Below, piece by piece: positions 2,641-23,608 of a stretch of 32,000 nt of DNA. Each line of letters opens with the position of its first letter. Position 1 is the stretch's first letter. The stretch spans positions 2,190,001 to 2,222,000 of the forward strand of contig NZ_LT549890.1 of NCBI RefSeq assembly GCF_900079115.1, in the 5' to 3' direction. The stretch comes from Saccharolobus solfataricus (lineage in GTDB: Archaea > Thermoproteota > Thermoprotei_A > Sulfolobales > Sulfolobaceae). The notes below the pieces were generated by a model. It searched no databases. It was not told where the DNA came from and saw only the letters and a list, made by a program, of their open reading frames with translations. Position numbers and translations under genes: made by a program.

Positions 2641-2648
2641 TTATATCC
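2641..2648. repeat. Target-site duplication (left copy) TTATATCC
   Basis: Identical octamer at 3822-3829, immediately outside both TIRs. Confidence 0.9.
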
Positions 2649-3821
2649 GGGAGTGTTCTCATGCAGTCATCTTATTCGATATCATATAGTAAAATTAAAT
2701 CAGGCTAGAAATTTTCACAATTAGTCGTTTCGATCGAGATGCAGCCAATGAATTAGAACATGAAAACAGCCTCTGAAAAAGCTTATGTGCGAGGGTTGCG
2801 AGATTTTTTGTGAGGGTTACCAGGATGAACCTCGTAACCCTCGCACAATTAATACTTATGATTCTAAGAAATTTAAATCTTAAGCCGAGAAAGTACGAGC
2901 TAAAGGATATTGCATTAGCATTAGCAGCCTACTCCTTGGGAGTTCAAATCACGAAAACGGGAATCCCACCATCAACCCTATACTACTATTTGAGGAAAGT
3001 AGGGATAAGGAGGAGAAGAGAAAGCAGACCAACATGCCCATCATGTAACTCTAACAGAGTAGTGAAGAACGGCTCATCTAGAGGGAAAGCAAAATACAAG
3101 TGTAAAGCATGTGGAAAGACGTTTTACGACGTCACAAGTCATAGAATGGATAGGGAACAGAGGGAGAGAATCTTAAAGGAGTACTTGAACAGGATGAGCA
3201 TGAGGGCAATATCAAGAGTTGAAGGTAAACCATTGACTACTGTTTACAGCCTAGTGAGGAGGATTGGGATAAGGGCCTTTACGAATCTAACGATCTTGAA
3301 GGGTGAGCTCAAGAATTTCACAGCTAAGTCTACGGTGTTTGACGAGTTCTGGACTTATTTCCGTGTTAGGCATGGGGTGATGAGGGAGGATTTGTGGATT
3401 TGGACTGCTCTTGCTGATGGTGTGCCTTTCTATGAGTTTGGGGATAGGAGTTATGGGACTTTTCGTTATCTCTTGGGTTGGTTACCTAGGAGTGAGGTAA
3501 ACTATACTGACTACTATTGTGTTTATCAAGTTCTCGATAATCGTGTAGCGGGTAAGAAGTATACTTATCTTGTGGAGAGCCATAATTCTTGGTGTAGGTC
3601 TCATTTGGCGAGGCTGGCTAGGGATACTAAAGCTGTTACTAGGAGTGGGAGGATGACGGAGTACAGTTTGGCCTTGTTGAATGTAATGTACCCTCACGTA
3701 TTCTCAAGGGAGAGAACTCCCTTAAATGAGGCATACTTGAAGGGAGTACAGTATATTAGAGAAAACTTGATATAATTTTACTATATGATATCGAATAAGA
3801 TGACTGCATGAGAACACTCCC
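2649..3821 (+). mobile_element. Intact IS1-family insertion sequence of 1173 bp. The length and host fit Sulfolobus ISC1173 (name from memory).
   Basis: Perfect 49-bp terminal inverted repeats GGGAGTGTTCTCATGCAGTCATCTTATTCGATATCATATAGTAAAATTA at 2649-2697 and 3773-3821. Perfect 8-bp direct repeats TTATATCC flank it. It carries a single full-length transposase ORF. Confidence 0.93.
2810..3775 (+). CDS. IS1-type transposase (InsA-like zinc finger/HTH fused to an InsB-like DDE domain)
   Basis: 321 aa with the zinc finger CPSCNSNRVVKNGSSRGKAKYKCKACGKTF followed by HTH-like and DDE regions (DEFWTYF...). The start may be the ATG at 2825. The stop TAA 3773-3775 lies in the right TIR. Confidence 0.9.
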   Translation: MRVTRMNLVTLAQLILMILRNLNLKPRKYELKDIALALAAYSLGVQITKTGIPPSTLYYYLRKVGIRRRRESRPTCPSCNSNRVVKNGSSRGKAKYKCKACGKTFYDVTSHRMDREQRERILKEYLNRMSMRAISRVEGKPLTTVYSLVRRIGIRAFTNLTILKGELKNFTAKSTVFDEFWTYFRVRHGVMREDLWIWTALADGVPFYEFGDRSYGTFRYLLGWLPRSEVNYTDYYCVYQVLDNRVAGKKYTYLVESHNSWCRSHLARLARDTKAVTRSGRMTEYSLALLNVMYPHVFSRERTPLNEAYLKGVQYIRENLI

Positions 3822-3829
3822 TTATATCC
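3822..3829. repeat. Target-site duplication (right copy) TTATATCC
   Basis: Identical octamer at 2641-2648. Confidence 0.9.
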
Positions 3830-4942: not shown

Positions 4943-5866
4943 TCACCCTATTACTGATACGCTACCCTCTGGCTGGTATATATATTCAGATATTGTGAGA
5001 GGAGATCCTATATTTGGTGTAATTTGTATTGTTATTGTCTGATATTGAAATACATGACTTCCTAGATCTGGTCCAAACAAAAGTATTACTCCTATTACTG
5101 ATCCGGCGGGGGCGATAGCACTCCCTATTAACGGATCTCCTGCCACTGGATATGTAAATGCAAATGTCTGATTAACAAACACATAGTAAGTAACTAGTTT
5201 GCCGCTTATATTGAGAGTGAAAGTAAAACTATTGTCATTCTTCAACCATGATGGAAGGCTAGATAGAGATAGAATGCTACTATTAATAAATATTGGTGAT
5301 GGTGTTTTTGTACTAAGATAATAATTATATAGTGTGTAATTAAGTGCTAGTAACGCATAGTAAGGATTAGGATAATATACATATGTTTGACCTGCACTTG
5401 TCTGCTGATTTACGAGATCTAAGTACTGTCCATTCGCGTATACGACATTCGCTAGTTCAGATGGGGATACTGTTAATAAGGTGTATTTATATATATTTGA
5501 GTACGTCACTCCTTCTGCAGATGCAGTAAACGAGATGGCTGTAGTAGTGGGCGACAATTCCACGCTAGAAACTCCAGAACTTGGAGATACTGTAAAGTAT
5601 ATCCAGTAGCTTCTAGTATTTAATGGATAGTTAACAGCATATAGGACAGAGCCGGATAGTGTTAGTGCTGTTGACGCTGTCTCCTCTCCTTTATTTATAG
5701 TGGATTTGGCTTTCTGTGTCACAAATAATCCCATATTTATAGCCACGTAAGCTAATACTGATGCAGTTATTATAAATGCTATTAATATTATTGCAGTGTC
5801 TAATCCCGCTAATCCTTTCCTTTTCACTTTTTTGTTGTATTCCTTTAACATCTTTTTGGAGTTCAT
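4943..5866 (-). CDS. flaB: Archaellin FlaB/ArlB
   Basis: 307 aa with a class III (type IV pilin-like) signal peptide, ...KRKGLAGLDTAIILIAFIITASVLAYV. It has a Ser/Thr-rich beta domain with many N-x-S/T sequons and is the first gene of the operon. Confidence 0.9.
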   Translation of the reverse strand: MNSKKMLKEYNKKVKRKGLAGLDTAIILIAFIITASVLAYVAINMGLFVTQKAKSTINKGEETASTALTLSGSVLYAVNYPLNTRSYWIYFTVSPSSGVSSVELSPTTTAISFTASAEGVTYSNIYKYTLLTVSPSELANVVYANGQYLDLVNQQTSAGQTYVYYPNPYYALLALNYTLYNYYLSTKTPSPIFINSSILSLSSLPSWLKNDNSFTFTLNISGKLVTYYVFVNQTFAFTYPVAGDPLIGSAIAPAGSVIGVILLFGPDLGSHVFQYQTITIQITPNIGSPLTISEYIYQPEGSVSVIG

Positions 5867-5902
5867 TTTTTGGTCACTTGCTGAAATCCGTTTCTCAGAA
5901 CA

Positions 5903-5913
5903 CTTTTAAAAAT
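5903..5913 (-). promoter_or_regulatory. Candidate flaB TATA box (ATTTTTAAAAG on the minus strand)
   Basis: A/T box about 38 nt upstream of the flaB ATG. An SD-like GTGAC follows it. Confidence 0.4.
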
Positions 5914-5988
5914 CTCTCTCTGATTTTCGACTACAGGTCGACATAACTTTAGGCTATTTTTTAAGTAACTGTTAGCAAGTAATATTTA

Positions 5989-6474
5989 ATGGCTCCTATC
6001 TTTCTAGAATACAAGGTTGTACATGATAATATTACATATTATATTATTTATGTTTTTATATATAATTTATCATTAAAGTTAGTAACAATGTATACAATAA
6101 ATCCAAGTTCTCATACAATTCTTAACTATAATGTATCTTTAGAGCCCGAACAAATTTTTTCAAATATCACTGGAGTATCTACATATTATAGCTTAGATGG
6201 AAAAAAGATTCTTGCTTACGAAGACAACAACGGTAGTATAATCGTAGCATATAACGGGTTAATTCTGAAAAAGGCTAGCAATAACTCTGTTCGTTATCTC
6301 ATAGCTGCTAACTATCCTGGAATTGATAACAGTAAATTTCCTAGTCTTTATAAGCTAGCTGAAATCTCCATTTTTGATTCTAATATAAGGGTCCTAGTTT
6401 TAGGGGTTTTACTAACTATTTTGTCATCCTTCATCCTAAAGGTTATGGTGGGACGATATGATAAGGTTAGATAA
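5989..6474 (+). CDS. Hypothetical protein with a C-terminal TM anchor; paralog of 9610-10098
   Basis: 161 aa with a C-terminal hydrophobic helix (VLVLGVLLTILSSFILKV) and 6 N-x-S/T sequons. A TATA-like ATTTTTTAAG lies about 28 nt upstream, so the mRNA is probably leaderless. Local similarity to 9610-10098: N[LV]S...SH.I.L.Y.V and G[VI]ST. Confidence 0.55.
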   Translation: MAPIFLEYKVVHDNITYYIIYVFIYNLSLKLVTMYTINPSSHTILNYNVSLEPEQIFSNITGVSTYYSLDGKKILAYEDNNGSIIVAYNGLILKKASNNSVRYLIAANYPGIDNSKFPSLYKLAEISIFDSNIRVLVLGVLLTILSSFILKVMVGRYDKVR

Positions 6475-7927
6475 ACGTAACTTCATTCCTTGGATTTCTA
6501 TAGTTCTTTTATTATGTGCCTACTCCATAGGGACTGGCCTGTATATAACTATACAGCGTGTTACGTATTATCCTATATTTGAATCTAAAATTGTTTCAGT
6601 ATTTCTTACAATATTCTCATCATCCTTGATTACTTTTTACAATTATAAGAAATATGTCTTTCTACTTCCGTTATCTCTATTGTCTTTCTTCTCTGTGTCG
6701 TTAACTCCCCTTATAATATCTATATTTATTTTATATGAGTTAAAGAAAGTTGACCGAACAGTTAGTATTATATTGCTAATAATAAATGCTTCCATGATAT
6801 CATGGCTTATTCTACGTTTACTATTAGGCATTAATACTTACTTTTCTATTCCTCTAATGATTTTAGAAGCGGGAGCACCTACGGTAATTCCATTTATATG
6901 GTTTGTTGGAATAATATTATCTGCTTATAAAAGAAATTTAAGTAGTAAAAGCCAACTATTTATCAATCCCTTAATTCCATTCATTGTGGTACTACTTATT
7001 TCTCTAATCCCTTACCTTCCTTTTATAAATCCTTACAAGTTTCCAGAAACTGTTGATTTCAAATATTACTATTCATGGCTTTTGGCACCCACTTTCAGTG
7101 GATGGTTCTTCGACTCCAGGCCTGTGTATTTGATGCTTTTATATGCGTTGTCACTCATTTTTAAACCGTATACAGTAGCGTACTATGAATTTATATTTCT
7201 CTCACTTCTTTATACATATTCTGCATATAAACTAGCCTCAGCAATAGATAAATCTATAGCTTCCTTATCTGCCTTATTAGCTTCGGTATCTCCTATGCTA
7301 ATGACCTTCCTCTATTCTGGTTTGGAAGCCAATTTATTTTCAATATCATTGATGTTTATCTCAATGTCGTATCTTTTCAAAAAAGAGAAATTAAGTTTAG
7401 CGATACTATTTTCTTTATTATCAATGTTCTCTCACATATACGCTTGGGCTCAATTATCAACTGGAATAACTCTATATTATCTTCTTAAATCAATTATACA
7501 TAGATCCAGACCAGACAACTATACATTAACGTATTTGTCCTTCTCAATTCCTTTTATAGCAATTGGACTCTTTCTTATATTAAGTGGCGTTTTTCCTCTA
7601 CCTATGGAATTATTAAATTATACTCAACTTATATACCAGATAGCGGTAGTGAGTTGGGGATCCAACAACGCCTTGCTTTACTTTTTGTTATCGTCTTTTG
7701 GAAATAGGTATGTTAAGGAAGGAGTTCTAAATTTCGTTTATTCAATTTCGGTATTTGGTATTATCTTTGTATCATCAGCAACCAATTTAATTATCGACTT
7801 ACCTCTTTTCATTCCAGCTGCATATACCATAAGAAACGTTAATAGGCGAAGTACTTCTATACTATTGGTCTTAAGTTTAATATTGTGGGGTATCTATATG
7901 AGCATTAACAGCGTTCCTATGCTATAA
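6458..7927 (+). CDS. Polytopic integral membrane protein (>=12 hydrophobic segments), function unknown. The architecture is GT-C/PMT-like, but this is speculative.
   Basis: 489 aa, almost entirely hydrophobic helices. It overlaps the upstream gene by 17 nt, suggesting translational coupling. Confidence 0.6.
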   Translation: MIRLDKRNFIPWISIVLLLCAYSIGTGLYITIQRVTYYPIFESKIVSVFLTIFSSSLITFYNYKKYVFLLPLSLLSFFSVSLTPLIISIFILYELKKVDRTVSIILLIINASMISWLILRLLLGINTYFSIPLMILEAGAPTVIPFIWFVGIILSAYKRNLSSKSQLFINPLIPFIVVLLISLIPYLPFINPYKFPETVDFKYYYSWLLAPTFSGWFFDSRPVYLMLLYALSLIFKPYTVAYYEFIFLSLLYTYSAYKLASAIDKSIASLSALLASVSPMLMTFLYSGLEANLFSISLMFISMSYLFKKEKLSLAILFSLLSMFSHIYAWAQLSTGITLYYLLKSIIHRSRPDNYTLTYLSFSIPFIAIGLFLILSGVFPLPMELLNYTQLIYQIAVVSWGSNNALLYFLLSSFGNRYVKEGVLNFVYSISVFGIIFVSSATNLIIDLPLFIPAAYTIRNVNRRSTSILLVLSLILWGIYMSINSVPML

Positions 7928-8005
7928 CTATGCTTAACATTATCTCGTTGCTTACATAAAAATTTTGTAAGACGATGCTTTGTTAGCTTGTCAAGAGTGT
8001 TCTCA

Positions 8006-8203
8006 GGGAGTGTTCTCATGCAGTCATCTTAATTAGATAAATGATAGTAAATTTATATTCAGATTGGAGGTGCTCATAATTAGTCATTTTGATCTATGGG
8101 TAGCCGTGGAATTAGAACTTGCAAGGCATTTCTTGAAATATGGTTTATGTTTGAGGATTACGAAATTTTTGTGAGGATATAGCTAAGATAAACCTCCTAA
8201 CTT
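8006..8203 (+). mobile_element. Solo left-end remnant of an ISC1173-related element (~198 bp)
   Basis: It starts with GGGAGTGTTCTCATGCAGTCATCTTA, identical to the first 26 nt of the IS at 2649. It stays recognisably collinear with IS positions 1-~197 (AATTAGTC.TTT.GATC, GAATTAGAAC, ATTTTTGTGAGG, AACCTC.TAAC). No right TIR was found. The 11-nt terminus GAGTGTTCTCA is duplicated in tandem at 7994-8004. Confidence 0.7.
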
Positions 8204-8299: not shown

Positions 8300-8701
8300 A
8301 TGATAAGAGAGATATACAAGTTACTATTAGTCGGTGTTATCTCCTTCTTAATAATTGTAACTGTAATATCTAGGCTTTACATTGTTCTCGTTCCTATTGT
8401 GTTGTTTTCGATATACTTAATTAATGAGTCTAGAATACCAGAAATAAAAGATTTAAAATCATTTCATAAATACGTGGAAAAAGTTTATGGAAGAGATTTT
8501 GCAGCCATAATTAAGAAGAGATATAACATTATTCAAGGTGATTTAACGTTAGCTTATTTCCCATCGTCAATCGAAGATAATACCGTAGTTATAGCCAATA
8601 CTCATCTAATCTTGAAGATAAATTCCAGAGTATTTGTATTGAGTAAATATGAGGGTGTTGATTACCTAGTAGATATAATTAAAGGGAATGTTGCGAGCTA
8701 A
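8300..8701 (+). CDS. Hypothetical membrane protein (2 N-terminal TM helices plus a soluble domain)
   Basis: 133-aa ORF with plausible codon usage. No family recognised. Confidence 0.5.
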   Translation: MIREIYKLLLVGVISFLIIVTVISRLYIVLVPIVLFSIYLINESRIPEIKDLKSFHKYVEKVYGRDFAAIIKKRYNIIQGDLTLAYFPSSIEDNTVVIANTHLILKINSRVFVLSKYEGVDYLVDIIKGNVAS

Positions 8702-8783: not shown

Positions 8784-9596
8784 ATGTCTTATAATGTGTT
8801 CGATGTATTAAGGGAGCTAGATTCCATTGTAGATTTTGCTAGAGCTAAATTACAGTGGGATATTTTATTTTTCATAAATTCTAGGGGGCCTTCATCCATT
8901 TCAGAAATAGCTGAAGGTACCAATAACAGCAAAAAAGCGGTAATAGATGCTATAAGGAAACTAGTAGAAAAGGAACTGATTATTAAGGTTAAGTATGACG
9001 TCTATGATTTATCCGAGAAGGGAAAGCAAGTATTAAATAAACTCAATTACTTTACATCTCATACAGTATCTACCCAAAAAAGTGTTGATGGCGATAATAA
9101 TGTATTATCAAATAATGCAGATAACCCTTCACAGAATTACTATTTGTTAGAACTAATAAAGATGTCTTTGCTTAATAACGGTACCTTACCTATTGACAAA
9201 GTGAGTAGAGAATTGGGGATATCTAAACAGACAGTCAAGTACTATCTAGAATTATTCATGAGGAAGAAGATTTTTAAGAAGGTAAACAAGAAGAGCTTGT
9301 TAGGGAAGAGTGTTCAAACTGTTGTACTTACTAGTGAGGGTAGAAAAATAGCTTACAAGGTACCTAGTCTAATTAAAATAAGGAATAACTTATTTCTAAG
9401 ACTACTATTAAAAATAACTTTTAGTATAAGTTATGAATCAGCTTTGATGAAGCTTATGGTTTTCTTCGCATTATCTTCACCCATAATAATATATTATGAT
9501 GGCGATCCACCCGTTCGTATACTTGGCATTGTATGGTTATATATGCTGGTCTTCACCTCACTATTGAGTATATTCGCCTATTTAACAATGAGATAG
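8784..9596 (+). CDS. arnR: Membrane-anchored HTH transcription regulator, ArnR-like (archaellum regulatory network activator)
   Basis: 270 aa with an N-terminal winged-HTH-like region (ISEIAEGTNNSKKAVIDAIRKLVEKELI) and a second HTH (IDKVSRELGISKQTVKYYLELF). Two C-terminal TM helices follow. This matches the published ArnR architecture, and ArnR is encoded next to the fla operon in Sulfolobales. Confidence 0.6.
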   Translation: MSYNVFDVLRELDSIVDFARAKLQWDILFFINSRGPSSISEIAEGTNNSKKAVIDAIRKLVEKELIIKVKYDVYDLSEKGKQVLNKLNYFTSHTVSTQKSVDGDNNVLSNNADNPSQNYYLLELIKMSLLNNGTLPIDKVSRELGISKQTVKYYLELFMRKKIFKKVNKKSLLGKSVQTVVLTSEGRKIAYKVPSLIKIRNNLFLRLLLKITFSISYESALMKLMVFFALSSPIIIYYDGDPPVRILGIVWLYMLVFTSLLSIFAYLTMR

Positions 9597-9609: not shown

Positions 9610-10098
9610 ATGGAGTTAATTAATGTCAGTCTTCTATATTTGGTAACGGGAAATTATACTCATTATCTTATGTTGATTACTATACTTAATGTAAGCAAAA
9701 ATTTTGCAATTATAAACATGACTGAGATAAGTCATAACATTACATTATCATATGTGGTAGCCTATCCAATTTTCCTTCTTTACATACCAAACGTAACGCA
9801 ACAAAGTATAGTCACTCAGTTCGAGGGAATCAGCACTACCATTGTTAACATACTTAACTTTACGATTTATGTTGATGTATACAATAGCATAGTTGTCCAT
9901 TACATAGGAAACGGAATTAATGTAACTCTAATTGGAGCTACAATTCCCCTAGGGCCAGGAGTCTACAAACCAATCCCTTCCTATATATTAGGTCACCAAA
10001 GAACTGGTAGTACCGTAGAAGAATACGAGATATTTCTTCTTACAATTGTGCTAGTAGTTTCGTTCTACGTTATATTCGAGAGGATGAATAAAAAATGA
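9610..10098 (+). CDS. Hypothetical protein with a C-terminal TM anchor; paralog of 5989-6474
   Basis: 162 aa with 8 N-x-S/T sequons and a C-terminal TM helix (IFLLTIVLVVSFYVIF). It has the same size and layout as 5989-6474. Confidence 0.55.
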   Translation: MELINVSLLYLVTGNYTHYLMLITILNVSKNFAIINMTEISHNITLSYVVAYPIFLLYIPNVTQQSIVTQFEGISTTIVNILNFTIYVDVYNSIVVHYIGNGINVTLIGATIPLGPGVYKPIPSYILGHQRTGSTVEEYEIFLLTIVLVVSFYVIFERMNKK

Positions 10099-10277
10099 AA
10101 ATATATAATCTCGGAAGAGCTTTAGTTTTGACTGGTATAATAGAGTTAATATTGGCTTCTCTTTTTTATTCTGATAAGAAAGTTATTTTATCAGTATTAT
10201 TGGGGGATTATTCGTATTTTTGTCTACTTATCGGTGTTATAGTTATAGCCGTATATGGAGCTATAACTAAGAATTAA
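10095..10277 (+). CDS. Small two-TM membrane protein
   Basis: 60 aa. ATGA start/stop overlap with the upstream gene, and two hydrophobic helices. Confidence 0.4.
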   Translation: MKIYNLGRALVLTGIIELILASLFYSDKKVILSVLLGDYSYFCLLIGVIVIAVYGAITKN

Positions 10278-10460
10278 TGTTTTTGAATTATGGAAACTAT
10301 TTTATTCTCCAATCTTCTACATGTTTTGGGAGTTTGTCGTAATCTTTTATGAGTGTGAGCACAAATTTCATTCATTTGAGACTTAGTTTAAGTTCCCCTA
10401 ATATCACTTTTCCTCAAATGCTTTAATTGCGTAACAAAACTTTTTGAAAAAGTTAAAAAT

Positions 10461-10624
10461 GGGAGATTCAGAGATCCATTGGGAATTCACTTTATTTTAA
10501 AGATTACTACGAAATTAACTAAATGAAGACGATTAACTAGCAGAGATGCATGACTACTAATGTTAACATCTTTACAACCGCATTATTTACAAATTACAAT
10601 TCGCAAAGGAGAACTGAATCATCC
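10461..10624 (+). mobile_element. MITE copy A (164 bp)
   Basis: Termini GGGAGATTCAG... and ...CTGAATCATCC form an imperfect TIR. Perfect 8-bp TSD TTAAAAAT at 10453-10460 and 10625-10632. No ORF. Homologous copies lie at 13175-13339 and 16846-17008. Confidence 0.85.
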
Positions 10625-10910
10625 TTAAAAATTGTTACATCTTCTCTTTTTCAGCATTCAAATCCTATGTTAAATTGAAAATAAACTAATACTTTATAAG
10701 GAATTATACTAAATTAACAAAATTATTGCCCACTCTCTCTTTTATCGTAGATCTGTTAAAATTACGGGTATAATTGATGATATTAATATATGTTTCTAGT
10801 TGTAGATTAGCTATATTTAATTATTATTTAATATATTCTTGAGATAGCGTTTTATAAGTAATAATGAAGACTTATAACCTATAACTAGTAATATCTATAG
10901 GGGATAATTT

Positions 10911-11129
10911 GTGGAAAAGATAGTGAAAGTTAATGATACCACTTATATACTAGAAAATGAACGATCGGTTGTTATAACATTCAAACTAGAAGAAAATAAT
11001 TTGAGTACTGTCGATGAAATTGTGAAGAAATTAGGTTATGAGCATAGGAGCGATTTCATTAGAGATGCCATAGAGAAATATATAAGCTATCTTAAGTCAA
11101 GCAGTAATAACAGTAAAAAGGATTATTAA
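10911..11129 (+). CDS. Ribbon-helix-helix (CopG/Arc/MetJ-type) DNA-binding protein
   Basis: 72 aa with a GTG start preceded by AGGGGAT. RHH pattern: a beta strand (VVITFKLEE) followed by helices (LSTVDEIVKKLGYEHRSDFIRDAIEKYISYL). Confidence 0.65.
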   Translation: MEKIVKVNDTTYILENERSVVITFKLEENNLSTVDEIVKKLGYEHRSDFIRDAIEKYISYLKSSSNNSKKDY

Positions 11130-11254
11130 TGAATAATTAAGTTAAATTAATATAATTTAGTTTAATGAGGTATATATTAAAGAAACATAGACAAGGGAAA
11201 TTAAAAAGCTCCACATAGCTAAGGTATGATTCTGAAAATATAAGAATGGCGCTG

Positions 11255-12275
11255 CTTTGTGGATTGCTTCAGAATTGTACAAAAAGTTTATAGATTATTC
11301 GTTAAGTATTACCTATGGGAAAGAGTAAGTACAAGAGGGACTGGAGCAAGTACGACGAGAACGTCATAACTAGATATAAGTTGATGTTCCCCTTCTACGT
11401 ATTCGAACATTGGTGGGACTTATTAGCAGAGGAGAACAGGAACGCTAGGACAAAGTATAAAGCCTAAAGGAGTTCAACGAATTCCTAGCATTCTTACACA
11501 TCTTCCTACCTTGCAATAGAAGGAGTATTAAGAGCCTTAGAACAATTGAAGATCATCCCCACAAGCCTCGAACAATATGGGAGAGAGTGAGGAACATGAA
11601 CATAACCTTCCCCGAGACAAGTGATGAACTTGAAGTAATTGCAGACGCTACCGGCATTAGCACAAACACGGGAGGACAATACATTGTTGCCAAGTGGGGT
11701 AAGACTAGGGATTCAAAATTCCTCAAGATCGAGATAGTAATGGACAATAACGAATTCAACGTGGTAAACGCTGAGGTCACTAGCAACGAGGTTGAAAGTG
11801 TAAAAACAGTTAAGGATCTTCAAGATAAGGGAAAGAAGTTTTATGGAGATAAGACATATGACGTCAATGAGGTTTACAAGACCGGAGTTGAGGTTGTAGT
11901 TCCTCCCAAGAAGAACGCTTCTACTAAACGCCATCTTGCTAGACGTAAGGCTGTGCGGGAGTTTAGGAAGTTGGGTTATGATCGTTGGAGGGAGGAGAAG
12001 GGTTATGGCGTTAGGTGGAGGGTCGAGTCCTTGTTCTCTGCGGTGAGGCGTACTTTTGGGGAATCGGTTAGGCAAGTTTTGCTGGGCAAGTAGTTGAGGC
12101 TAAGCTCAAGTTCTGGGCTTACGCGTGGATGGTTCACTTGGCGAATTCTGTAGTCGGTAGGACTCAAGCATTAGGGTGTAAGCTTGAGAAGAACGTTGAA
12201 ATAAATATTAATTACTGAAAAAATTAGTGTTATACAATATCGTTTTAATGAGACAAATTGAACGAATCAACAAAG
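11255..12275 (+). mobile_element. Decayed IS5-family-like insertion sequence of ~1.02 kb. It resembles the Sulfolobus ISC1058 type (name from memory).
   Basis: Imperfect TIRs: CTTTGTGGATTGCTTCAGAATTGTAC (11255-) versus the reverse complement of 12252-12275, CTTTGTTGATTCGTTCAATTTGTC. The interior carries a frameshifted DDE transposase. Confidence 0.65.
11315..12218 (+). pseudogene. DDE transposase (IS4/IS5 superfamily) broken by several frameshifts and a stop
   Basis: MGKSKYKRDWSKYDENVITRYKLMFPFYVFEHWWDLLAEENRNARTKYKA stops at 11465. It continues in other frames: KEFNEFLAFLHIF, LAIEGVLRALEQLKIIPTSL, then ORF 11587-12093 (YGDKTYD..., RWRVESLFSAVRRTFGESV), then VEAKLKFWAYAWMVHLANSVVGR to TGA 12216-12218. 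Confidence 0.8.
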
Positions 12276-12333
12276 TAGAATAACGCATAAAATTTTTATT
12301 TTGCAATGGAGAAGAGTTTTGAGGTTTGTAAAT

Positions 12334-13071
12334 ATGGAAGTCGTTTATGTACTTGGAGTGAAAGGCGGTATAGGTAAAACAACCTTCTCTCTTTATTTTG
12401 CTAATCAGCTATCTTTAACGGGTAAAAAAGTATTGTATATCGATCATGATTATTTTTCCTTTGGATCCTTAATATTGGGGCATAATGATCTTGGACTACT
12501 TGAGGAGATCGAAAATAATTTACCAATATTTTCAAGAAGTTTGAAAAACATCAATAATCTCTACATTTTAAAACTTTTTTCAAACCCTTTAGATGCTAAC
12601 AAGGATTATTCTTTATTAAGCAACAGTATTCCTCAAGTTGTAAATAGCATTGCTAAGATGGGATTGGATTATGTTATTTTAGATTCTTCAGTAGGTATAC
12701 TTCCAGATAATGATATTGTGATCGGATTACTAGAAGAGTTAGATGTAGAGAAAAAAGGAGTATTCTTAAGTGATATGTTATCTGTAAATTCTACTATAAA
12801 ATATGCTAAACTGTGGGAAAATGCGATAAAATATAAGATATTAGTTATAAATATGGTTCCGCCAATACCAGAGGACTTATCTGAAGCTATGAAAATTGCA
12901 AATAAAGTCTATGATGATAATAATAGCAAGTTATTCAATACTGTTGTAGTTGTTCCATTTGACGAGAAAATGTATAACTATAAACCATTAGGCAATGAAT
13001 ATGAAAATGAGAGACTCAATACTATATTATCATGTATTGTTAATAGATGTAATACTCTTATAATAAACTAG
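12334..13071 (+). CDS. ParA/MinD-superfamily (deviant Walker A) ATPase, paralog 1
   Basis: MEVVYVLGVKGGIGKTTF (KGGxGKT), A' VLYIDHD and Walker B YVILDSS. I prefer the ATG at 12334 (GAGGT 8 nt upstream) over the track start at 12301. It shares FLSDMLSVNSTIKYAKLWEN..ILVINMV and VPFDEKMYNY with paralog 3. Confidence 0.8.
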   Translation: MEVVYVLGVKGGIGKTTFSLYFANQLSLTGKKVLYIDHDYFSFGSLILGHNDLGLLEEIENNLPIFSRSLKNINNLYILKLFSNPLDANKDYSLLSNSIPQVVNSIAKMGLDYVILDSSVGILPDNDIVIGLLEELDVEKKGVFLSDMLSVNSTIKYAKLWENAIKYKILVINMVPPIPEDLSEAMKIANKVYDDNNSKLFNTVVVVPFDEKMYNYKPLGNEYENERLNTILSCIVNRCNTLIIN

Positions 13072-13174
13072 ATATTGCTAAATTATATGTGTTAAATATC
13101 TATAGGAAAATTTTATTTATGAGAAATGGAATTTATAAGATTATATGCAAAAATATTTGTTCTTTACCACTTAA

Positions 13175-13339
13175 GGGCGATTCAGTTCTCCTTTGCGAAT
13201 TGTAATTTGTAAATAATGCGGTTGTAAAAATGTTAACATTGGTAATCATGTGTCCTCTATTACTCGGTCATCTTCATTCAGTTAAATTCGTAGCAATCTT
13301 TAAAATAAAGTGGATATACAATGGGTAATTGAATCTCTC
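13175..13339 (-). mobile_element. MITE copy B (165 bp), inverted relative to copy A
   Basis: Its reverse complement aligns with copy A along the full length, and the last ~65 nt are nearly identical. Perfect 8-bp TSD CCACTTAA at 13167-13174 and 13340-13347. Confidence 0.85.
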
Positions 13340-13459
13340 CCACTTAAATGTCGAGTTAGATTACGTTTAGCGATTATATAAAATTAAACTTGGTCTCCAA
13401 ATATATATATAATATACTATAAACAAAAAAAAAAAAGAGAGAGATTTTTCTAGAGTAGA

Positions 13460-13466
13460 TTTATAA
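13460..13466 (+). promoter_or_regulatory. TATA box (TTTATAA) for paralog 2, leaderless spacing
   Basis: Centred about 28 nt upstream of the ATG at 13491. Confidence 0.45.
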
Positions 13467-13490
13467 GGTTGTTTACGTTAATAGAAATAG

Positions 13491-14258
13491 ATGATAAGGA
13501 TAAATGTTGTCGGTTTTAAAGGTGGTTCTGGAAAATCTACTATATCATATCATTTAGCCAGACAGCTAAGTGAGTATTATAATGTAGTACTTGTTGATAA
13601 GACATATTCTGGAACTATAAGCCGGATATATAACATAAACAATAATATCTTTTCCTTTCTGAAAGGAAGGAACGAGTTGTTCTATATTAATAAGAATAAC
13701 CTTTCAGTTATAAATATGTCCTTTTTGAATGAGGATGATCTAAATGGTATTGACTTTAACGCATTCAAATACTTATATAGCAAATTAACAAAGGATAGCG
13801 ATATAGTCATTGTAGATCATTCATCTATCCCTCATGATTTCGCAACTGAGATAGAATTGAAGGCATTTATGGAAAATTTTAGAAACTTCGCATATAATAC
13901 AGTACTTGTTCTTAGTGGAGATGAGATTCCAATAAAAAAATATTTAAACTATACCGTACTGTTAAACGATTTTGTAAAGAATTATGCTGAGAAAATCTTA
14001 GGTATTTCTTTACCAACTGATGTAAAATTTCTAAAAATCGTAGCAGTGATTATAAACAAAATTCTTAAAGGTCAAGAAAGTAAGTTGGAGGAGTTCATAA
14101 GAGGAGATGAGATACTGCAAAGATCTGCCAGATTCATAATTCCCTATTATCTTTCTCTCACACAAAGACATTTCAAGGATATTGATCCTCCTAAAGAGAT
14201 AAGTGATATTACAAGATATATATTAGACTTCTTAAGAGAGCCAACCTCAATTTTATGA
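13491..14258 (+). CDS. ParA/MinD-superfamily (deviant Walker A) ATPase, paralog 2
   Basis: MIRINVVGFKGGSGKSTI. The A' box is VVLVDKT, where the second Asp is replaced by Thr. Walker B is IVIVDHS, and it shares TISR[IV] with paralog 3. 255 aa. Confidence 0.75.
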   Translation: MIRINVVGFKGGSGKSTISYHLARQLSEYYNVVLVDKTYSGTISRIYNINNNIFSFLKGRNELFYINKNNLSVINMSFLNEDDLNGIDFNAFKYLYSKLTKDSDIVIVDHSSIPHDFATEIELKAFMENFRNFAYNTVLVLSGDEIPIKKYLNYTVLLNDFVKNYAEKILGISLPTDVKFLKIVAVIINKILKGQESKLEEFIRGDEILQRSARFIIPYYLSLTQRHFKDIDPPKEISDITRYILDFLREPTSIL

Positions 14259-15248
14259 TACTTGTAGCATTATTCTCCCTTCTCTATTTTCGTTCATAAT
14301 CTCTTTTACCGCCTCTACACCTTCATCTAACTTGTAAGTTTTGTGGACTTTTACCTTGCAATCCTTACACAGATTTATTAATTCCATTAGTTCCTTCCTA
14401 GATCCCCCCGTGGTTCCAACTACCTTTATATGCCTTCCGTATAGGGAGCTTAGATTTACCTTCACTTCACTTCCAGTTAAAGTTCCAAAGAACGCCAATT
14501 GACCATCTAAACCTAGAACCTGTAAGCTATTTTCCCACATTGAGGAGCCTAAGGAGTTTATTACTACATCGGCCATTTTCCCATTGGTTATTTCTTTAAC
14601 CTTTTGCACTACATCATCATATCCTACTATGTAATCTGCACCAAACTCTTTTAACCAGTTCTTTCTTGAAACCGCTATAACTGTTGCCCCGAACTTTTTA
14701 GCTAGTTGTACTGCGAAAAGTCCGGTATTGCCACTCGCACCAAATATTACTATAATATCGTTAGGGCCTACTTCTAATTCTTTTAGAGAATGGTATGAAG
14801 TTAGAGCTGCTACGGGTAAGCTAGCGGCGACATCCCAACTCATACTTTCCGGAATTTTGAAAATGTTTTTATCTGGAACCGAAAAGTATTCTGACCATCC
14901 GCCGTTAGTTATGACACTCATTATCCCGCCGTTTCTACATAACATTTCCCTTCCAGATAGGCATAAATCACAAGTACCATCAAATACTCTATTGTACACT
15001 ACTACCTTATCCCCCTTATTTAATCCTTTTACATGATCCCCCACTTTTTCAACTACTCCAGCTAGTTCTGCTCCGGGGATATGGGGCATTGGAGTAACTG
15101 GAATTGCGTTAATAACAAAGTAATCTATGGGGTTTAAACCAGATTTAACTACTCTTATCAAAACGTCATGCGGACCTAATTGTGGTTCTTGAACTTCTTT
15201 TACCTTGAGATTTTCTAAACCACTCTTGTCGAAAACTAGGGCTTTCAT
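14253..15248 (-). CDS. Zinc-type alcohol dehydrogenase / MDR-family oxidoreductase
   Basis: MKALVFDKSG... with HIPGAELAGVVEKVG, the structural-Zn Cys cluster GTCDLCLSGREMLC, and the Rossmann motif IFGASGNTG. I prefer the ATG at 15248 over the track start at 15269. The 3' end overlaps paralog 2 convergently by 6 nt. Confidence 0.85.
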   Translation of the reverse strand: MKALVFDKSGLENLKVKEVQEPQLGPHDVLIRVVKSGLNPIDYFVINAIPVTPMPHIPGAELAGVVEKVGDHVKGLNKGDKVVVYNRVFDGTCDLCLSGREMLCRNGGIMSVITNGGWSEYFSVPDKNIFKIPESMSWDVAASLPVAALTSYHSLKELEVGPNDIIVIFGASGNTGLFAVQLAKKFGATVIAVSRKNWLKEFGADYIVGYDDVVQKVKEITNGKMADVVINSLGSSMWENSLQVLGLDGQLAFFGTLTGSEVKVNLSSLYGRHIKVVGTTGGSRKELMELINLCKDCKVKVHKTYKLDEGVEAVKEIMNENREGRIMLQVS

Positions 15249-15300
15249 AAGAGTTAGTCTTATCTGCAATATAAATCGGTTACTTAACTTTAGGTAACTA

Positions 15301-15660
15301 CTATCCTCTTATTCCTATCTTAGCCTTATTCTTAAAGCTAATATACTCATACGCTAGGCTTACGAAATCTTCATCAGCCTCTTCGCACTTCTTCTTTATT
15401 GTAATGTATCTCAAGGTCTCTAATTCTACAGATGTTAAGTTAGTTATGTATAAAAATATATTTGTTGGCTTGTGTAATAAAATGGCTTCAGCTCCTTTAA
15501 GTACAAATAGGTGGAGTTTTTCTCCATCCTCCTCTTCAATAACCTGTAGATTAATTGGAAAATTAGTTATCTTTTTTATCCATAGGTTCTCTAGCATTAT
15601 TACTTCTTCATTGTCGTTTAACTTTTCAATGTTTTTAACAAATTTCTCAATCACACTCAT
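15301..15660 (-). CDS. Small acidic hypothetical protein (~119 aa), divergent from ATPase paralog 3
   Basis: I prefer the start MSVIEKFVKNIEKL... at 15660, which has a TATATAAAA box about 24 nt upstream. The longer track ORF adds an Ile/Asn-rich N-extension that overlaps the paralog 3 start. An alpha/beta pattern is predicted by eye. Confidence 0.5.
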   Translation of the reverse strand: MSVIEKFVKNIEKLNDNEEVIMLENLWIKKITNFPINLQVIEEEDGEKLHLFVLKGAEAILLHKPTNIFLYITNLTSVELETLRYITIKKKCEEADEDFVSLAYEYISFKNKAKIGIRG

Positions 15661-15748
15661 GAGCGTTATACAATACGTTTTATATACTTTTAAGTTTGAA
15701 GCGGAAAAATTATTAAACGAGATATAGAGTATTACATAGAGAGAATTA

Positions 15749-16369
15749 TTGATAACGAATATCATCAGACTTTTGAGTATTAAAGGAGGTGTTGGTAAAA
15801 GCTCTATAGCTTATGCGTTAGCGAGAATTATCTCTGCTTCTGGGTACAAGGTATTATTTTTAGATATGGACAACCTTCACACTATTTCAAGAGTATTGGG
15901 AGTTAAGGATTGTGAGCTAACATATACAAGAGATTTTTTCGTATTTGCATGTGATGATTTTAGTAAGATTTCGTTTAATAGCTATGAATATGTGATAATT
16001 GATACTTATTCTGGGATCTCTAGTGAAACGCTTTCAGCTATTAGCGGGGATCATGTTTACAATATTTTTATTTCAGACTTTTCTTCTATTGATAATACTT
16101 TAAATTATATAAAGGAGTGGAATGGTAAGAAAACTACTAATTTTTTAGTTGTAAATATGGTCATAAGGGAAGATAATGAGAATGATATTTTATTAAGAAG
16201 GTTTTTCGATTCTTTACTCCTTAAAATTAATGTGGCGATAAATAAGATATTTTTATTTTTCTTTGATGAAAATTATTATGGATCTTATAAAGTTGATCTA
16301 AATCATATAGAACTCTTAGCTAGTTATGTACTAGGTGAAATGAGTGAATCTGATCTAAACTTAGGATAA
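15749..16369 (+). CDS. ParA/MinD-superfamily (deviant Walker A) ATPase, paralog 3
   Basis: TTG start. LLSIKGGVGKSSIAYALA, A' VLFLDMD, Walker B YVIIDTY, FISDFSSIDNTLNYIKEWNG..FLVVNMV. 206 aa. Confidence 0.75.
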   Translation: MITNIIRLLSIKGGVGKSSIAYALARIISASGYKVLFLDMDNLHTISRVLGVKDCELTYTRDFFVFACDDFSKISFNSYEYVIIDTYSGISSETLSAISGDHVYNIFISDFSSIDNTLNYIKEWNGKKTTNFLVVNMVIREDNENDILLRRFFDSLLLKINVAINKIFLFFFDENYYGSYKVDLNHIELLASYVLGEMSESDLNLG

Positions 16370-16626
16370 GTAATACCATTTTTTAGTATTACTACCAAGG
16401 AATCTTTGCCGTCTACTTTCAATTCAACATATTTTTTGACAACTATCAAGGCTTTTAAAAGAACGCAGTGATAATTAGGATATGGGTAATAAAGTTTTCA
16501 CATTTGGTGATATCAGAATTAGGGAAGTTAAGGGAAAGTATTATGTTTACTTAATAGAGAAGGACTCAGAAGGTAAGAGAAGGGATAATTATGTAGGTCC
16601 TTTAGATGAAATCGTTAAAGGGTATA

Positions 16627-16711
16627 TGCGGGGGACGGGATTTGAACCCGTGCAGGCCTTCGCCAGCGGAGCCTCAGTCCGCCCCCTTTGCCCTAGCTCG
16701 GGCACCCCCGC
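16627..16711 (-). tRNA. tRNA-Leu (anticodon GAG), class II with a long variable arm
   Basis: Manual cloverleaf fold. Acceptor GCGGGGG/CCCCCGC, anticodon stem GCGGA/TCCGC, loop CTGAGGC (U33, GAG, G37). Variable arm GGC-GAAG-GCC, T arm ACGGG-TTCAAAT-CCCGT, discriminator A. No CCA is encoded. Confidence 0.9.
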
Positions 16712-16736
16712 ATATCAATACTTTATATTAACTAGG

Positions 16737-16742
16737 TATAAA
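16737..16742 (-). promoter_or_regulatory. tRNA-Leu TATA box (TTTATA at -31 to -26)
   Basis: Position relative to tRNA nucleotide +1 fits the Sulfolobus promoter consensus. Confidence 0.55.
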
Positions 16743-16845
16743 GTTTTACCATAGAATAAGACAGAAGGACTTCAGGAAGTAGATGAATGTTTCAAACTTT
16801 AAGACTATAATTCAAGGAAGGAACGGAGTTAAGAAGCTCTTTTTT

Positions 16846-17008
16846 GGGTTATTCAAGTATTTGTTGATAATTCACTTTATTTCAAAGACGCTATGGATTT
16901 AACTAAATTAAAACGACTGAATAGCAGAGATACATAGTTACTAATATTAACATTTTTTATATCTACATTATTCGCAAATTATAATTCACAAAGAGACTTG
17001 AATCACCC
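16846..17008 (+). mobile_element. MITE copy C (163 bp), a diverged member of the same family
   Basis: GGGTTATTCAAG...ACTTGAATCACCC, collinear with copy A (ATTCACTTTATTT.AAAGA, TTAACTAAAT, AGCAGAGAT.CAT, TTAACAT.TTT, ATTAT.C.CAAA). The flanking duplication is not clean. Confidence 0.7.
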
Positions 17009-17392
17009 TTCTTTTGAAGTGAGAATAACTTAGGTTAATAGGAAGAGATACTCTATGGATCTCATTTCATTTGATAACTAGGTGGATATAGAAAGATTTG
17101 TTCAAGATAGCTATTTGAGCATTAGAGAAATTCTATAAATAAAGAGTTTAAACAAATAGTTATTATTACTCATGATATTAGTATGTGATTCAATGACGTA
17201 GAGATTGATAGGGAAACTTCTATTATTCGAATTTATGGTATCTAATTATCTCTCTACTGCTGCTTAAATTTACAATTGATAGGATGCGGGAACTCCCTCA
17301 TTGGAAAAAATTAATCCGAGTACGATGTAAAAAGTTTTAGCGTGGTCTCTCGCTTAGTTGTTCTTTAAAAGTAAGTTGAAGGTGTAAGGTCT

Positions 17393-22714: not shown

Positions 22715-23608
22715 ATTATTATTAGACTTGCAGTAATCCATGAATCTGAGAAGGTTACTAAGGCTTCTAAGCAACTTTTACTTGAGGTAAAAAGTAGAAA
22801 TCATAGTGCGTATTATATAAGAATTTCCAAACTAAATGCAGAAATAACCGAGCATGGCATAGAATTTACATATAGTGGAAGGAAGGTTGATATAGATGGA
22901 GGACTAATAAGGAACTTGGGCTTCATCTCTACTACTGAGCAGTTCATAAAGAGGTTCGATGTATTAAGGGAGCTAGAAAGAAATGGAGTAGTACTAATGA
23001 ATAGGCCAGATTCGATGTTGCTAGCCAGGGATAAGTTTGCAAGTTTAATGAGAATGAGAAGGGCAGGTATTCCAGTTCCAAACACTGCACTAGTAGAAGA
23101 TCCCTTCGAAGTTATGAGATTAGCAGAAAGATGGGGCGAAGTTGTGATAAAACCTGTAGTGGGAAGTCTAGGTTTAGGATCCGTTAAGGTTTCAGATCCA
23201 GATATAGCGTTTAGAGTAGCTAAGGCTATTTTATCGGTAAATCAGCCAGTTTACGTTCAAAAATATGTAAAGAAACCAGATAGAGATATTAGAGTGATTG
23301 TAATTGGGGATAAAGTTCTAGGAAGCATATATAGAATATCGAAGAGTGGATGGAAAACTAATATAGCCCAAGGCGCTACAGCACAAGTTTTAATTCCAGA
23401 TGCAGAATTAGAAGAAATAAGCTTAAAGAGTGTTAGAGTCCTCGGTTTGGATTATGCTGGGATAGATATTATAGAAGATGTGGAGAACGGTGGTTATAAG
23501 ATAATTGAAGTTAATGCAGCACCTTTGTGGGACGGATTTGAGGCAGCTACAAATATTAATCCAGCTAAATATATTGTCACGCATTTAATAGAAAAGATTA
23601 GGAGATGA
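22715..23608 (+). CDS. RimK/LysX-family ATP-grasp ligase; start codon unresolved
   Basis: The track ORF (22916-23608) holds the ATP-grasp core ([34 protein letters not shown]). The 67 in-frame codons upstream ([14 protein letters not shown]...[13 protein letters not shown]) align by eye with the LysX/RimK N-domain. They contain no ATG, GTG or TTG. Confidence 0.75.

Follow-up and report, generated by a model that had tools for sequence, protein, structure and literature searches.

What are three highly divergent ATPases of the ParA/MinD type doing between the archaellum genes and an integration scar on a crenarchaeal chromosome? The question arises from a 32,000-nucleotide stretch of the Saccharolobus solfataricus genome (contig NZ_LT549890.1, positions 2,190,001 to 2,222,000; hereafter, the window, whose coordinates are used throughout), which corresponds to S. 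solfataricus strain P2, SSO2331 to approximately SSO2338. An original prediction, made from the sequence alone, described the three genes, here denoted P1, P2 and P3, as a triplicated set of orphans and weighed a role in positioning or regulating the archaellum against a partition module of a captured element. Here, we report a comparative analysis that leads us to reject the captured module and to propose, with about an even chance of being right, that P1-P3 are vertically inherited ATPases of the ArnR neighbourhood of Sulfolobaceae that act as membrane-associated switches of an ArnR/archaellum module. All three open reading frames (ORFs) are present as first described, and the translations from the window are identical to the proteins of strain P2:

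12334-13071, plus strand: P1 (SSO2331, AAK42485), MinD/ParA-class ATPase with KGGIGKTT and DHD
13491-14258, plus strand: P2 (AAK42486), divergent ParA/MinD-fold ATPase with KGGSGKST and the A' box VDKT
15749-16369, plus strand: P3 (AAK42489), short MinD/ParA-class ATPase with KGGVGKSS and DMD

The start of P1 is placed at 12334 by the starts of its orthologs, yielding a protein of 245 amino acids (aa). The signature lysine of the deviant Walker A motif is present in all three proteins, along with the A' boxes IDHD (P1), VDKT (P2) and LDMD (P3) and the Walker B boxes ILDSS, IVDHS and IIDTY, respectively; in alignments, KGGxGK[ST], the A' box and the Walker B aspartate are invariant inside each ortholog family. 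P1, P2 and P3 all match Pfam CbiA (PF01656) above threshold (35-41 bits) and are weak members of the ParA/MinD superfamily (SIMIBI class, deviant Walker A). Their distance from the canonical families, recognized from the outset, is borne out by the NCBIfam models of MinD, ParA_partition, RepA, BcsQ, Mrp, Get3/ArsA and bacterial tyrosine (BY) kinases, none of whose cut-offs is reached. In the TIGR01968/TIGR01969 tests of MinD, P1, P2 and P3 score 24.7, 13.0 and 28.7 bits against minD_arch (cut-off 201.75), and P1 and P3 score 33.4 and 27.1 bits against minD_bact (cut-off 212.9), where P2 has no score; with ParA_partition (NF041546), the scores are 28.9, 28.2 and 41.8 bits against a cut-off of 180. 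Profile searches thus place P1-P3 in no curated family. Among solved structures, the nearest to the P1-family profile is MinD (38.8 bits), the best matches of the P3-family profile in the Protein Data Bank (PDB) are FleN (5j1j, 8pb9, 8p53) and CFD1 at about 31-34 bits, and the P2-family profile finds nothing in the PDB at E<=0.01. An anti-phage defence function was also considered and discarded: the PADLOC models gave only P-loop-level matches to PDC-M28B.

The three proteins are not equally close to one another. P1 and P3 align over their full length (hhalign E=1.2e-19, 174 columns), P2 and P3 over 119 columns (profile-profile E=9e-11), and P1 and P2 only over the 39-column P-loop region (profile-profile E=3.5e-8). 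The statement that all three are clearly paralogs therefore stands for P1 and P3, which are full-length paralogs, reaches part of P2 in the comparison with P3 and falls for P1 and P2; P2 is far more distant. An exhaustive search with the P1-family profile over 1.84 billion representatives retrieved 5 relatives at E<=1e-30, 47 at E<=1e-10 and 531 at E<=1e-3. One member of the P3 family comes in only at about rank 63 (53 bits), some 60 protein clusters being closer to P1; the nearer ones include full-length relatives from S. caldissimus, Sulfolobus sp. A20, E11-6, Acidianus brierleyi, A. manzaensis and Thermoplasmata. Given this rank, a local triplication of an orphan has to be abandoned, the orphan status also being at odds with the orthologs in several species and with the 47 relatives. 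P1, P2 and P3 each represent a lineage of their own in a wider MinD/ParA-like radiation among thermoacidophiles. As a separate observation, a P1-like paralog of the A20 type (37% identical to P1) lies in radical-SAM/PALP surroundings at locus L021 (8001-12001), and two genes 3' of it is a 714-aa membrane protein, a transmembrane segment of which is 50% identical over 42 aa to the 60-aa protein of the window discussed below; this likeness was not used because it falls inside transmembrane segments and may be compositional.

The loss of the second A' aspartate from P2, noticed in the original prediction, is no peculiarity of the window: the box reads (V/I)DKT in every ortholog across a span of 33-89% identity, including LIDKT in the 33%-identical one, so that the loss of the second acidic residue is old and maintained. 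By comparison, 49 of the 52 P1 relatives with a recognizable Walker A motif in the top-60 list keep DxD. P2 is probably a slow or non-hydrolysing partner. An AlphaFold2 (AF2) model of P2, with a predicted local distance difference test (pLDDT) of 57.7 and a predicted template-modelling (pTM) score of 0.68, gave full-length Foldseek matches to ParA/MinD folds (probability 1.0, template-modelling scores 0.5-0.6), headed by the Borrelia PF-32 partition protein and including ATPase-type HypB and CooC1, with SegA (7dut) at rank 36 as a generic fold match. These model-based matches support the fold and favour no subfamily.

The surroundings of the ATPases consist, on the side of the archaellum genes and between P2 and P3, of the following features:

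4943-5866, minus strand: arlB, archaellin (Pfam Arch_flagellin, E=2e-18), divergent from the module, with a 122-bp common control region
5989-6474, plus strand: 161-aa protein with a C-terminal transmembrane segment, first gene of the operon divergent from arlB
6458-7927, plus strand: 489-aa polytopic membrane protein with at least 10 transmembrane segments
8300-8701, plus strand: 133-aa protein with N-terminal transmembrane segments; its counterpart in lineage L008 (see below) lies 3' of a P1 fusion
8784-9596, plus strand: ArnR, membrane-bound helix-turn-helix (HTH) activator of arlB (NCBIfam equivalog NF041016)
9610-10098, plus strand: 162-aa membrane-anchored protein, co-transcribed with arnR (13-bp gap), with orthologs in all lineages
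10095-10277, plus strand: 60-aa protein with two transmembrane segments, its start overlapping the 162-aa gene by 4 nt
10911-11129, plus strand: 72-aa ribbon-helix-helix (RHH) protein (RHH_1, E=1.2e-5), aCcr1-like
14253-15248, minus strand: adh-6 (SSO2334, AAK42487), Zn-dependent alcohol dehydrogenase/quinone-reductase-like protein (ADH_N and ADH_zinc_N)
15301-15660, minus strand: 119-aa protein (SSO2337), divergent from P3 across 88 bp, with orthologs at 60-92% identity

The regulator of 270 aa, first described as ArnR-like, is ArnR itself (444.5 bits with NF041016, cut-off 400), with an HTH domain, two C-terminal transmembrane segments and a YY pair at 153/154 that matches the phospho-Tyr sites of Sso-ArnR, Tyr154/155 (PMC6396743). 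Orthologs of the 161-aa protein are found at 34-90% identity in all lineages, including the distant lineages L008 and L028 introduced below; this protein has no match to a Pfam or NCBIfam family, and the 489-aa protein none in Pfam, NCBIfam or the PDB profile search. The intergenic region between arlB and the 161-aa gene (5867-5988) contains an inverted repeat, TTTCGACTAC..GTCGA, that is kept across Saccharolobus species, and in L028 (4597-4742) the region common to arlB and the divergent operon holds an inverted repeat with 35-nt arms. The repeat probably corresponds to the ArnR-box region, in which case the module would be co-regulated with arlB.

Each of the three ATPases has orthologs in S. 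islandicus, S. shibatae, E5-1-F, S. tengchongensis, S. caldissimus and/or A20. The ratios of nonsynonymous to synonymous substitution rates (dN/dS) between S. solfataricus and S. islandicus REY15A are 0.23 for P1, 0.10 for P2 and 0.25 for P3, comparable to those of the RHH (0.14), 119-aa (0.10), ArnR (0.13) and 489-aa (0.11) genes, and indicate that P1-P3 are functional chromosomal genes, purifying selection acting on all of the genes compared. The gene order, namely, arlX and arlB on the minus strand, the 161-, 489- and approximately 133-aa genes, arnR, the 162- and 60-aa genes, RHH, P1 and P2, then adh and the approximately 120-aa gene on the minus strand, and P3, recurs in S. islandicus REY15A, S. 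tengchongensis, S. caldissimus and several metagenomic Saccharolobus lineages. The block adjoins arlB/arnR in six Saccharolobus lineages; taken by name, it does so in S. islandicus, S. tengchongensis, S. caldissimus, three metagenomic lineages and A20, where P1 is missing and P3 is inverted together with a CBS gene; at locus L013, P1 is inverted. The 3' flank of the block varies, with aRF1 in some species and the CBS gene and a tubulin-like cluster in others. Two loci of the S. caldissimus type (L004 11216-18708 and L011 14630-20816) comprise the block, P3 and CBS, and then a minus-strand cluster that encodes an 882-aa Tubulin_2 protein (PF13809) along with 735-, 343-, 315- and 232-aa proteins without a family. 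In every species examined, the co-occurring ATPases track arlB/arnR and not the tRNA-Leu/int(N) scar.

The linkage to arnR is tighter in two distant lineages. In L008, a Sulfolobaceae metagenome-assembled genome whose proteins are 32-47% identical to those of the window, the tightly packed genes run 168-aa, 490-aa, P2, ArnR, 151-aa, a fusion of the 60-aa protein with P1, and 143-aa. The N-terminus of the fusion protein (P0063) is the 60-aa membrane protein (47% identity over 47 aa, E=3e-11), and the remainder is a P1 ortholog with 42% identity to P1 of the window; this fusion ORF of 328 aa is found on seven contigs from independent samples. L028, with 23-43% identity to the window, represents a third lineage, in which arlH, arlF, arlG, arlX and arlB on the minus strand are followed by genes for a 148-aa protein, a 505-aa membrane protein, a P2/P3-like ATPase (185 aa) and an RHH protein (66 aa), by a 126-aa gene on the minus strand, and by ArnR and a 163-aa protein. 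In L028, a 4-nt overlap joins the 505-aa membrane-protein gene to the start of the ATPase gene, and one of 13 nt joins the ATPase gene to the start of the RHH gene. Neither lineage has adh, the 119-aa gene or P3, which are therefore additions within Saccharolobus. An ArnR-anchored GTDB scan with narrow patterns yielded 8 loci; the arnR loci of Sulfolobus acidocaldarius, Metallosphaera, Sulfurisphaera and Acidianus lie outside it. With the six-lineage synteny and the placement of ATPases inside the arnR operon in two lineages, the archaellum-linked positioning or regulatory role raised in the original prediction gains strong contextual support.

The competing idea of a captured partition module had as its starting points the RHH gene upstream of P1, taken together with P1 as a type Ib partition pair, and the mobile elements that surround the ATPases:

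10460-10627, plus strand: copy A of an element resembling a miniature inverted-repeat transposable element (MITE)
11315-12093, plus strand: decayed insertion sequence (IS) of the IS5 family (transpos_IS5_2, E=1.8e-30, partial match)
16482-16754, plus strand: orphan SSV-type int(N) integrase fragment (AAK42490; PF07935, E=2.9e-15)
16626-16712, minus strand: tRNA-Leu(GAG), overlapping the int(N) fragment
16845-17010, plus strand: copy B of the MITE-like element

As originally described, the 72-aa RHH gene is split from P1 by a decayed IS with a transposase remnant at 11587-12093; the element is absent in locus L001. The two MITE-like copies are approximately 170 bp long, about 78% identical and terminated by inverted repeats of 11-12 bp. 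They enclose the region that runs from the RHH gene to tRNA-Leu, and the orthologous loci elsewhere lack them; a weak bracketing repeat considered as an element border turned out to be this pair, each copy having terminal inverted repeats of its own. No other species has the integrase-specific part of int(N), either MITE copy or the IS5 remnant, S. islandicus and S. tengchongensis lack int(N) residues 1-47, tRNA-Leu is not present 3' of P3 in S. caldissimus and A20, and no second attachment (att) copy of tRNA-Leu was found in the window. The int(N)/tRNA-Leu pair is a strain-specific integration scar outside the module. Furthermore, tblastn searches of PLSDB and INPHARED gave bacterial P-loop matches only, PLSDB possibly being poor in archaeal plasmids; there are no centromere-like iterated repeats in the intergenic regions of the window, L001 or L028; and the block contains no ParB-, SegB- or AspA-like gene, as had been noted. 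Synteny, selection, the lack of plasmid or virus relatives in these searches, and the absence of repeats and of ParB, SegB or AspA jointly all but rule out the captured partition module.

A type Ib-like cassette of a small ParA and an RHH protein could also have been domesticated from a plasmid or virus integrated long ago. The order of ATPase and overlapping RHH gene in L028 is indeed reminiscent of parF-parG, the best NCBIfam match of P3 is ParA_partition, the Foldseek list of P2 starts with a partition protein, and the int(N) scar is nearby. However, the 41.8 bits of P3 are far below 180, the plasmid and phage searches gave generic P-loop matches only, iterated repeats are missing, S. solfataricus alone has int(N), the MITEs and the IS, and in two distant lineages the genes are inside the arnR operon. 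Nor is a type Ib pairing of the RHH protein with P1 supported: in Saccharolobus it is under its own promoter, it stays in A20 where P1 is missing, it is convergent with the inverted P1 in L013, and it belongs to an aCcr1-like clade. Its conserved, structured-looking N-terminal segment lacks a conserved arginine, which argues against a ParG-type activating tail. We consider such a domesticated cassette extremely unlikely.

The RHH gene is kept in all Saccharolobus loci and in L028. The protein scores 37.3 bits with aCcr1_fam (NF053762), against a cut-off of 60, and is a paralog of aCcr1, not aCcr1 itself. Counting genes from the arl locus of S. islandicus (sire_0118-0124) equates it with SiRe_0131 and P1, P2 and P3 with sire_0132, sire_0133 and sire_0136. 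SiRe_0131 is one of five aCcr1-like RHH proteins in S. islandicus and the only one whose gene tolerates deletion; its expression reaches about 5% of the tbp level, and it does not bind the cdvA promoter (PMC13199686). Its LAL14/1 counterpart, SiL_0120, represents a conserved branch with a conserved neighbourhood (PMC9976892). Upon aCcr3 overexpression, sire_0136, named as a ParA family gene 'potentially involved in chromosome segregation', goes down together with segAB and cdvABC (PMC13199686). A GTA-N-TAC palindrome, the core of the aCcr-type box, located 19-20 bp 5' of the P3 start (window 15722-15748; L001 around 9980), is consistent with this published repression; it is found in S. solfataricus and S. 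islandicus only, not in S. tengchongensis or S. caldissimus.

The ATPases, or at least P3, might accordingly serve chromosome segregation or the cell cycle under the aCcr RHH network, their position next to arnR being incidental. The joint downregulation of sire_0136 with segAB and cdvABC, the aCcr1 homolog encoded in the block and the box in front of P3 all point this way, but P1-P3 show no likeness to SegA at the sequence level (7dut is absent among their sequence and profile matches to the PDB), neither a SegB/ParB-type partner nor repeats accompany them, the box is not kept in the two other species, and the fusion to a membrane protein and the placement in the arnR operon would be left without an explanation. 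We regard this alternative as unlikely.

Another possibility is suggested by the genes next to P3. P3, the 119-aa gene and adh remain together in all Saccharolobus species, even across the A20 inversion; the divergent arrangement of P3 and the roughly 119-aa gene, already recognized in the original prediction, is confirmed with a spacing of 88 bp. Ortholog starts set the true start of the 119-aa gene at 15660 and that of adh-6, which is co-oriented and 3' of it, at 15248. No family match was found for the 119-aa protein, and an AF2 model from a shallow alignment (pLDDT 47, pTM 0.33) was unusable. Together with the cysteines C55 and C68 of P3, invariant in all 8 sequences of the family, the HypB and CooC1 matches of the P2 model and the CFD1 match of the P3-family (A3) profile, this neighbourhood could be taken to mean that P3, alone or with P2, is a maturation or metallochaperone NTPase of the CooC/HypB/Mrp kind, acting for the adjacent dehydrogenase or some other metalloenzyme and assisted by the 119-aa and CBS proteins. 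Yet a CxxC or CxC metal motif is lacking, the Mrp and CFD1 matches cover the P-loop only, and adh, probably a passenger, has no counterpart in the L008 and L028 modules; moreover, no Zn-dependent alcohol dehydrogenase is known to need such a chaperone. Membership among the Mrp/NBP35/ApbC Fe-S carriers was dismissed as well, MrpORP giving at most 36 bits against 450. A maturation role is, in our estimate, very unlikely. Separately, an in vivo binding site region of LysM and Ss-LrpB overlaps 14253-15700 of the window (adh-6/SSO2336-2337); by chromatin immunoprecipitation on microarrays, both regulators bind Sso2334-2336 in vivo, and weakly in vitro (PMC3597687, PMC4046817).

Returning to the role we favour, namely, membrane-associated switches of an ArnR/archaellum module, the ancestral module would have comprised, divergently from arlB, four or five membrane proteins (161, 489, 133, 162 and 60 aa), ArnR, at least one ATPase and an aCcr1-like RHH protein. 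The deviant-Walker-A ATPases would work as ATP-dependent dimerization switches at the cytoplasmic face of the membrane, binding both a surface and a partner. P1 would be recruited by the 60-aa protein with its two transmembrane segments; the fusion suggests that P1 works at the membrane together with this protein. The overlapping genes link the P2/P3-type ATPase to the 489-aa membrane protein and the RHH protein, and P2, presumably impaired in hydrolysis, may act with the former. The RHH protein could be the DNA-binding or regulatory arm, and P3 with the 119-aa protein (and, in some species, the CBS protein) a Saccharolobus-specific addition. Such a module may tune how the archaellum or another surface structure is expressed under ArnR, assembled or placed, in analogy to FleN/FlhG and MinD4.

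Several observations weigh against this proposal. P1 is missing in A20, and P2 of S. tengchongensis (L003 7444-8211), 76% identical over its full length, is an uncalled gene with a single in-frame stop at codon 211, which may reflect either a very recent inactivation or a sequencing error; individual members thus appear dispensable. In Saccharolobus, each ATPase has its own promoter outside the arnR operon, other P1-like paralogs occur in unrelated gene contexts, and the ArnR loci of Desulfurococcales are without such ATPases. A simple hydrophobic-moment analysis did not find a MinD-type C-terminal basic amphipathic membrane-targeting helix, the C-termini of P1-P3 being neutral or acidic. Deletion of sire_0131 has no growth or morphology phenotype, motility being outside that report, and upon aCcr3 overexpression the arl locus goes up while sire_0136 goes down (PMC13199686), which is not the co-regulation expected of a positive archaellum factor. 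What the analysis establishes is family, conservation, selection, synteny, the fusion and the gene overlaps; recruitment to the membrane, deficient hydrolysis and any influence on ArnR or the archaellum are inferred.

The independent promoters, the loss or inversion of individual members in some species and the P1-like paralogs in other contexts could also indicate that the three ATPases have no common function and are unrelated housekeeping ParA/MinD-like proteins in a variable region beside the arl locus. Against this stand the recurrence of the arnR linkage in three lineages with 30-45% protein identity and the fusion and overlapping genes, which argue for joint function; we find the absence of a common function improbable. 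A more specific possibility is that the ATPases form a crenarchaeal control layer that acts on ArnR directly, with an ATP-gated P1/P2 complex that sequesters, activates or modifies the regulator. Here, P1 would be tethered by the 60-aa adaptor, split in Saccharolobus and fused elsewhere, P2 would be hydrolysis-impaired, and the RHH protein would feed back on transcription, either in the manner of FleN on FleQ or as a BY-kinase-like pair of adaptor and P-loop protein directed at phospho-Tyr154/155 of ArnR. We hold this to be improbable; if true, it would link nutrient sensing at the membrane to archaellum expression.

The arl operon and the arnR region of the window contain some additional features. 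An intact IS of approximately 1.19 kb (2643-3827), whose terminal inverted repeats measure 60 bp (95%) and which encodes an IS1-like transposase (ORF 2810-3775), is located inside arlG. The likeness of arlG to its orthologs ends at about residue 102 of 154; the insertion therefore disrupts the arl operon of this strain and is probably polar on arlF, arlH, arlI and arlJ. A solo copy (89% identity; 7994-8031) of the terminal repeat of this IS at 2637-2674 lies between the 489-aa and 133-aa genes and could account both for the gap of 373 bp between them and for the 133-aa ORF being shorter than its S. islandicus counterpart (147 aa). A sequence of 24 nt, GTTCGATGTATTAAGGGAGCTAGA, is repeated exactly, at 8798-8821 in arnR (VFDVLRELD) and at 22954-22977 in a gene for a RimK-like ATP-grasp protein (RFDVLRELE), in frame in both genes and with unrelated flanks.

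That FleN/MinD-like ATPases accompany archaeal type IV pili (T4P) and archaellum loci is already published (PMC4858521). We found no description of an arnR-centred module with a transmembrane-fused ATPase, a DKT variant and an RHH-coupled ATPase, and the literature search on these genes turned up only one passing reference to sire_0136 and the data on SiRe_0131. Five uncharacterized membrane proteins, one RHH protein and as many as three MinD/ParA-class ATPases make up the conserved, ArnR-centred module that emerges, and a natural fusion and translationally coupled genes point to physical partnerships within it. The analysis corrects the notion that the ATPases are plasmid remnants, supplies a context for the 'orphan' aCcr1 paralog SiRe_0131 and presents the ATPases as testable candidate regulators or organizers of archaeal motility. 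The module bears on the way in which ArnR detects starvation and turns on the archaellum in Sulfolobales, and on how archaella are placed and counted in a coccoid crenarchaeon. Its genes (sire_0125 to sire_0136) look non-essential in the genetically tractable S. islandicus REY15A, which makes the hypothesis directly testable.

How do P1-P3 compare with known systems? Type Ib partition systems (ParF-ParG of TP228; delta-omega of pSM19035) share with the module the combination of a small Walker-type ATPase with an RHH protein and, in L028, the overlapping order of the two genes; they differ in the centromere repeats and the N-terminal arginine of the RHH protein, both lacking here, as well as in the chromosomal, arnR-embedded context and the absence of mobile-element relatives. 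With BY-kinases (CapA/CapB; Wzc), the likeness is one of architecture only, a two-transmembrane adaptor and a cytosolic MinD-fold P-loop protein, split or fused, along with weak matches to the eps_fam and Wzc models. Membership in this family was rejected: eps_fam gives 23.9 bits against 108, the Walker A motif is of the KGGxGK type, and the tyrosines YNY (P1) and NYYGSY (P3) are internal to the fold region instead of forming a cluster in a terminal tail. The RHH protein resembles the aCcr1/aCcr2/aCcr3 regulators in that SiRe_0131 is counted among the aCcr1-like proteins; it differs in being alone dispensable, weakly expressed, unable to bind PcdvA and below the aCcr1_fam cut-off.

The closest counterparts come from motility. 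ATPases of arCOG00589, which are FleN/MinD-like, outnumber all other predicted regulators in the vicinity of archaeal T4P and archaellum loci and often share operons with uncharacterized membrane proteins (Makarova, Koonin & Albers 2016; PMC4858521); that survey describes no arnR-linked Sulfolobaceae set, transmembrane fusion, DKT variant or RHH coupling. FleN/FlhG are MinD-like regulators of flagellar number and placement, FleN being an anti-activator of FleQ, and the parallel lies in a deviant Walker A ATPase encoded beside a motility locus with a dedicated activator, where the logic of an ATP-dependent dimer is to be expected. P1-P3 were nevertheless not assigned to this family: they score far under the family thresholds, the profile matches amount to 31-34 bits only, there is no C-terminal amphipathic membrane-targeting helix, and no FlhF or FleQ homolog is encoded at the locus. 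The partners here would be ArnR, small transmembrane proteins and the RHH protein, and the structure an archaellum, not a flagellum. MinD4 (and MinD2) of Haloferax volcanii, which positions archaella and chemosensory arrays, provides the precedent of an archaeal MinD/ParA-class ATPase implicated in organizing the motility machinery (bioRxiv 10.1101/2020.04.03.021790). MinD4 is encoded away from the arl locus and uses a C-terminal membrane-targeting sequence, which P1-P3 lack; P1 appears to use a separate or fused transmembrane protein instead.

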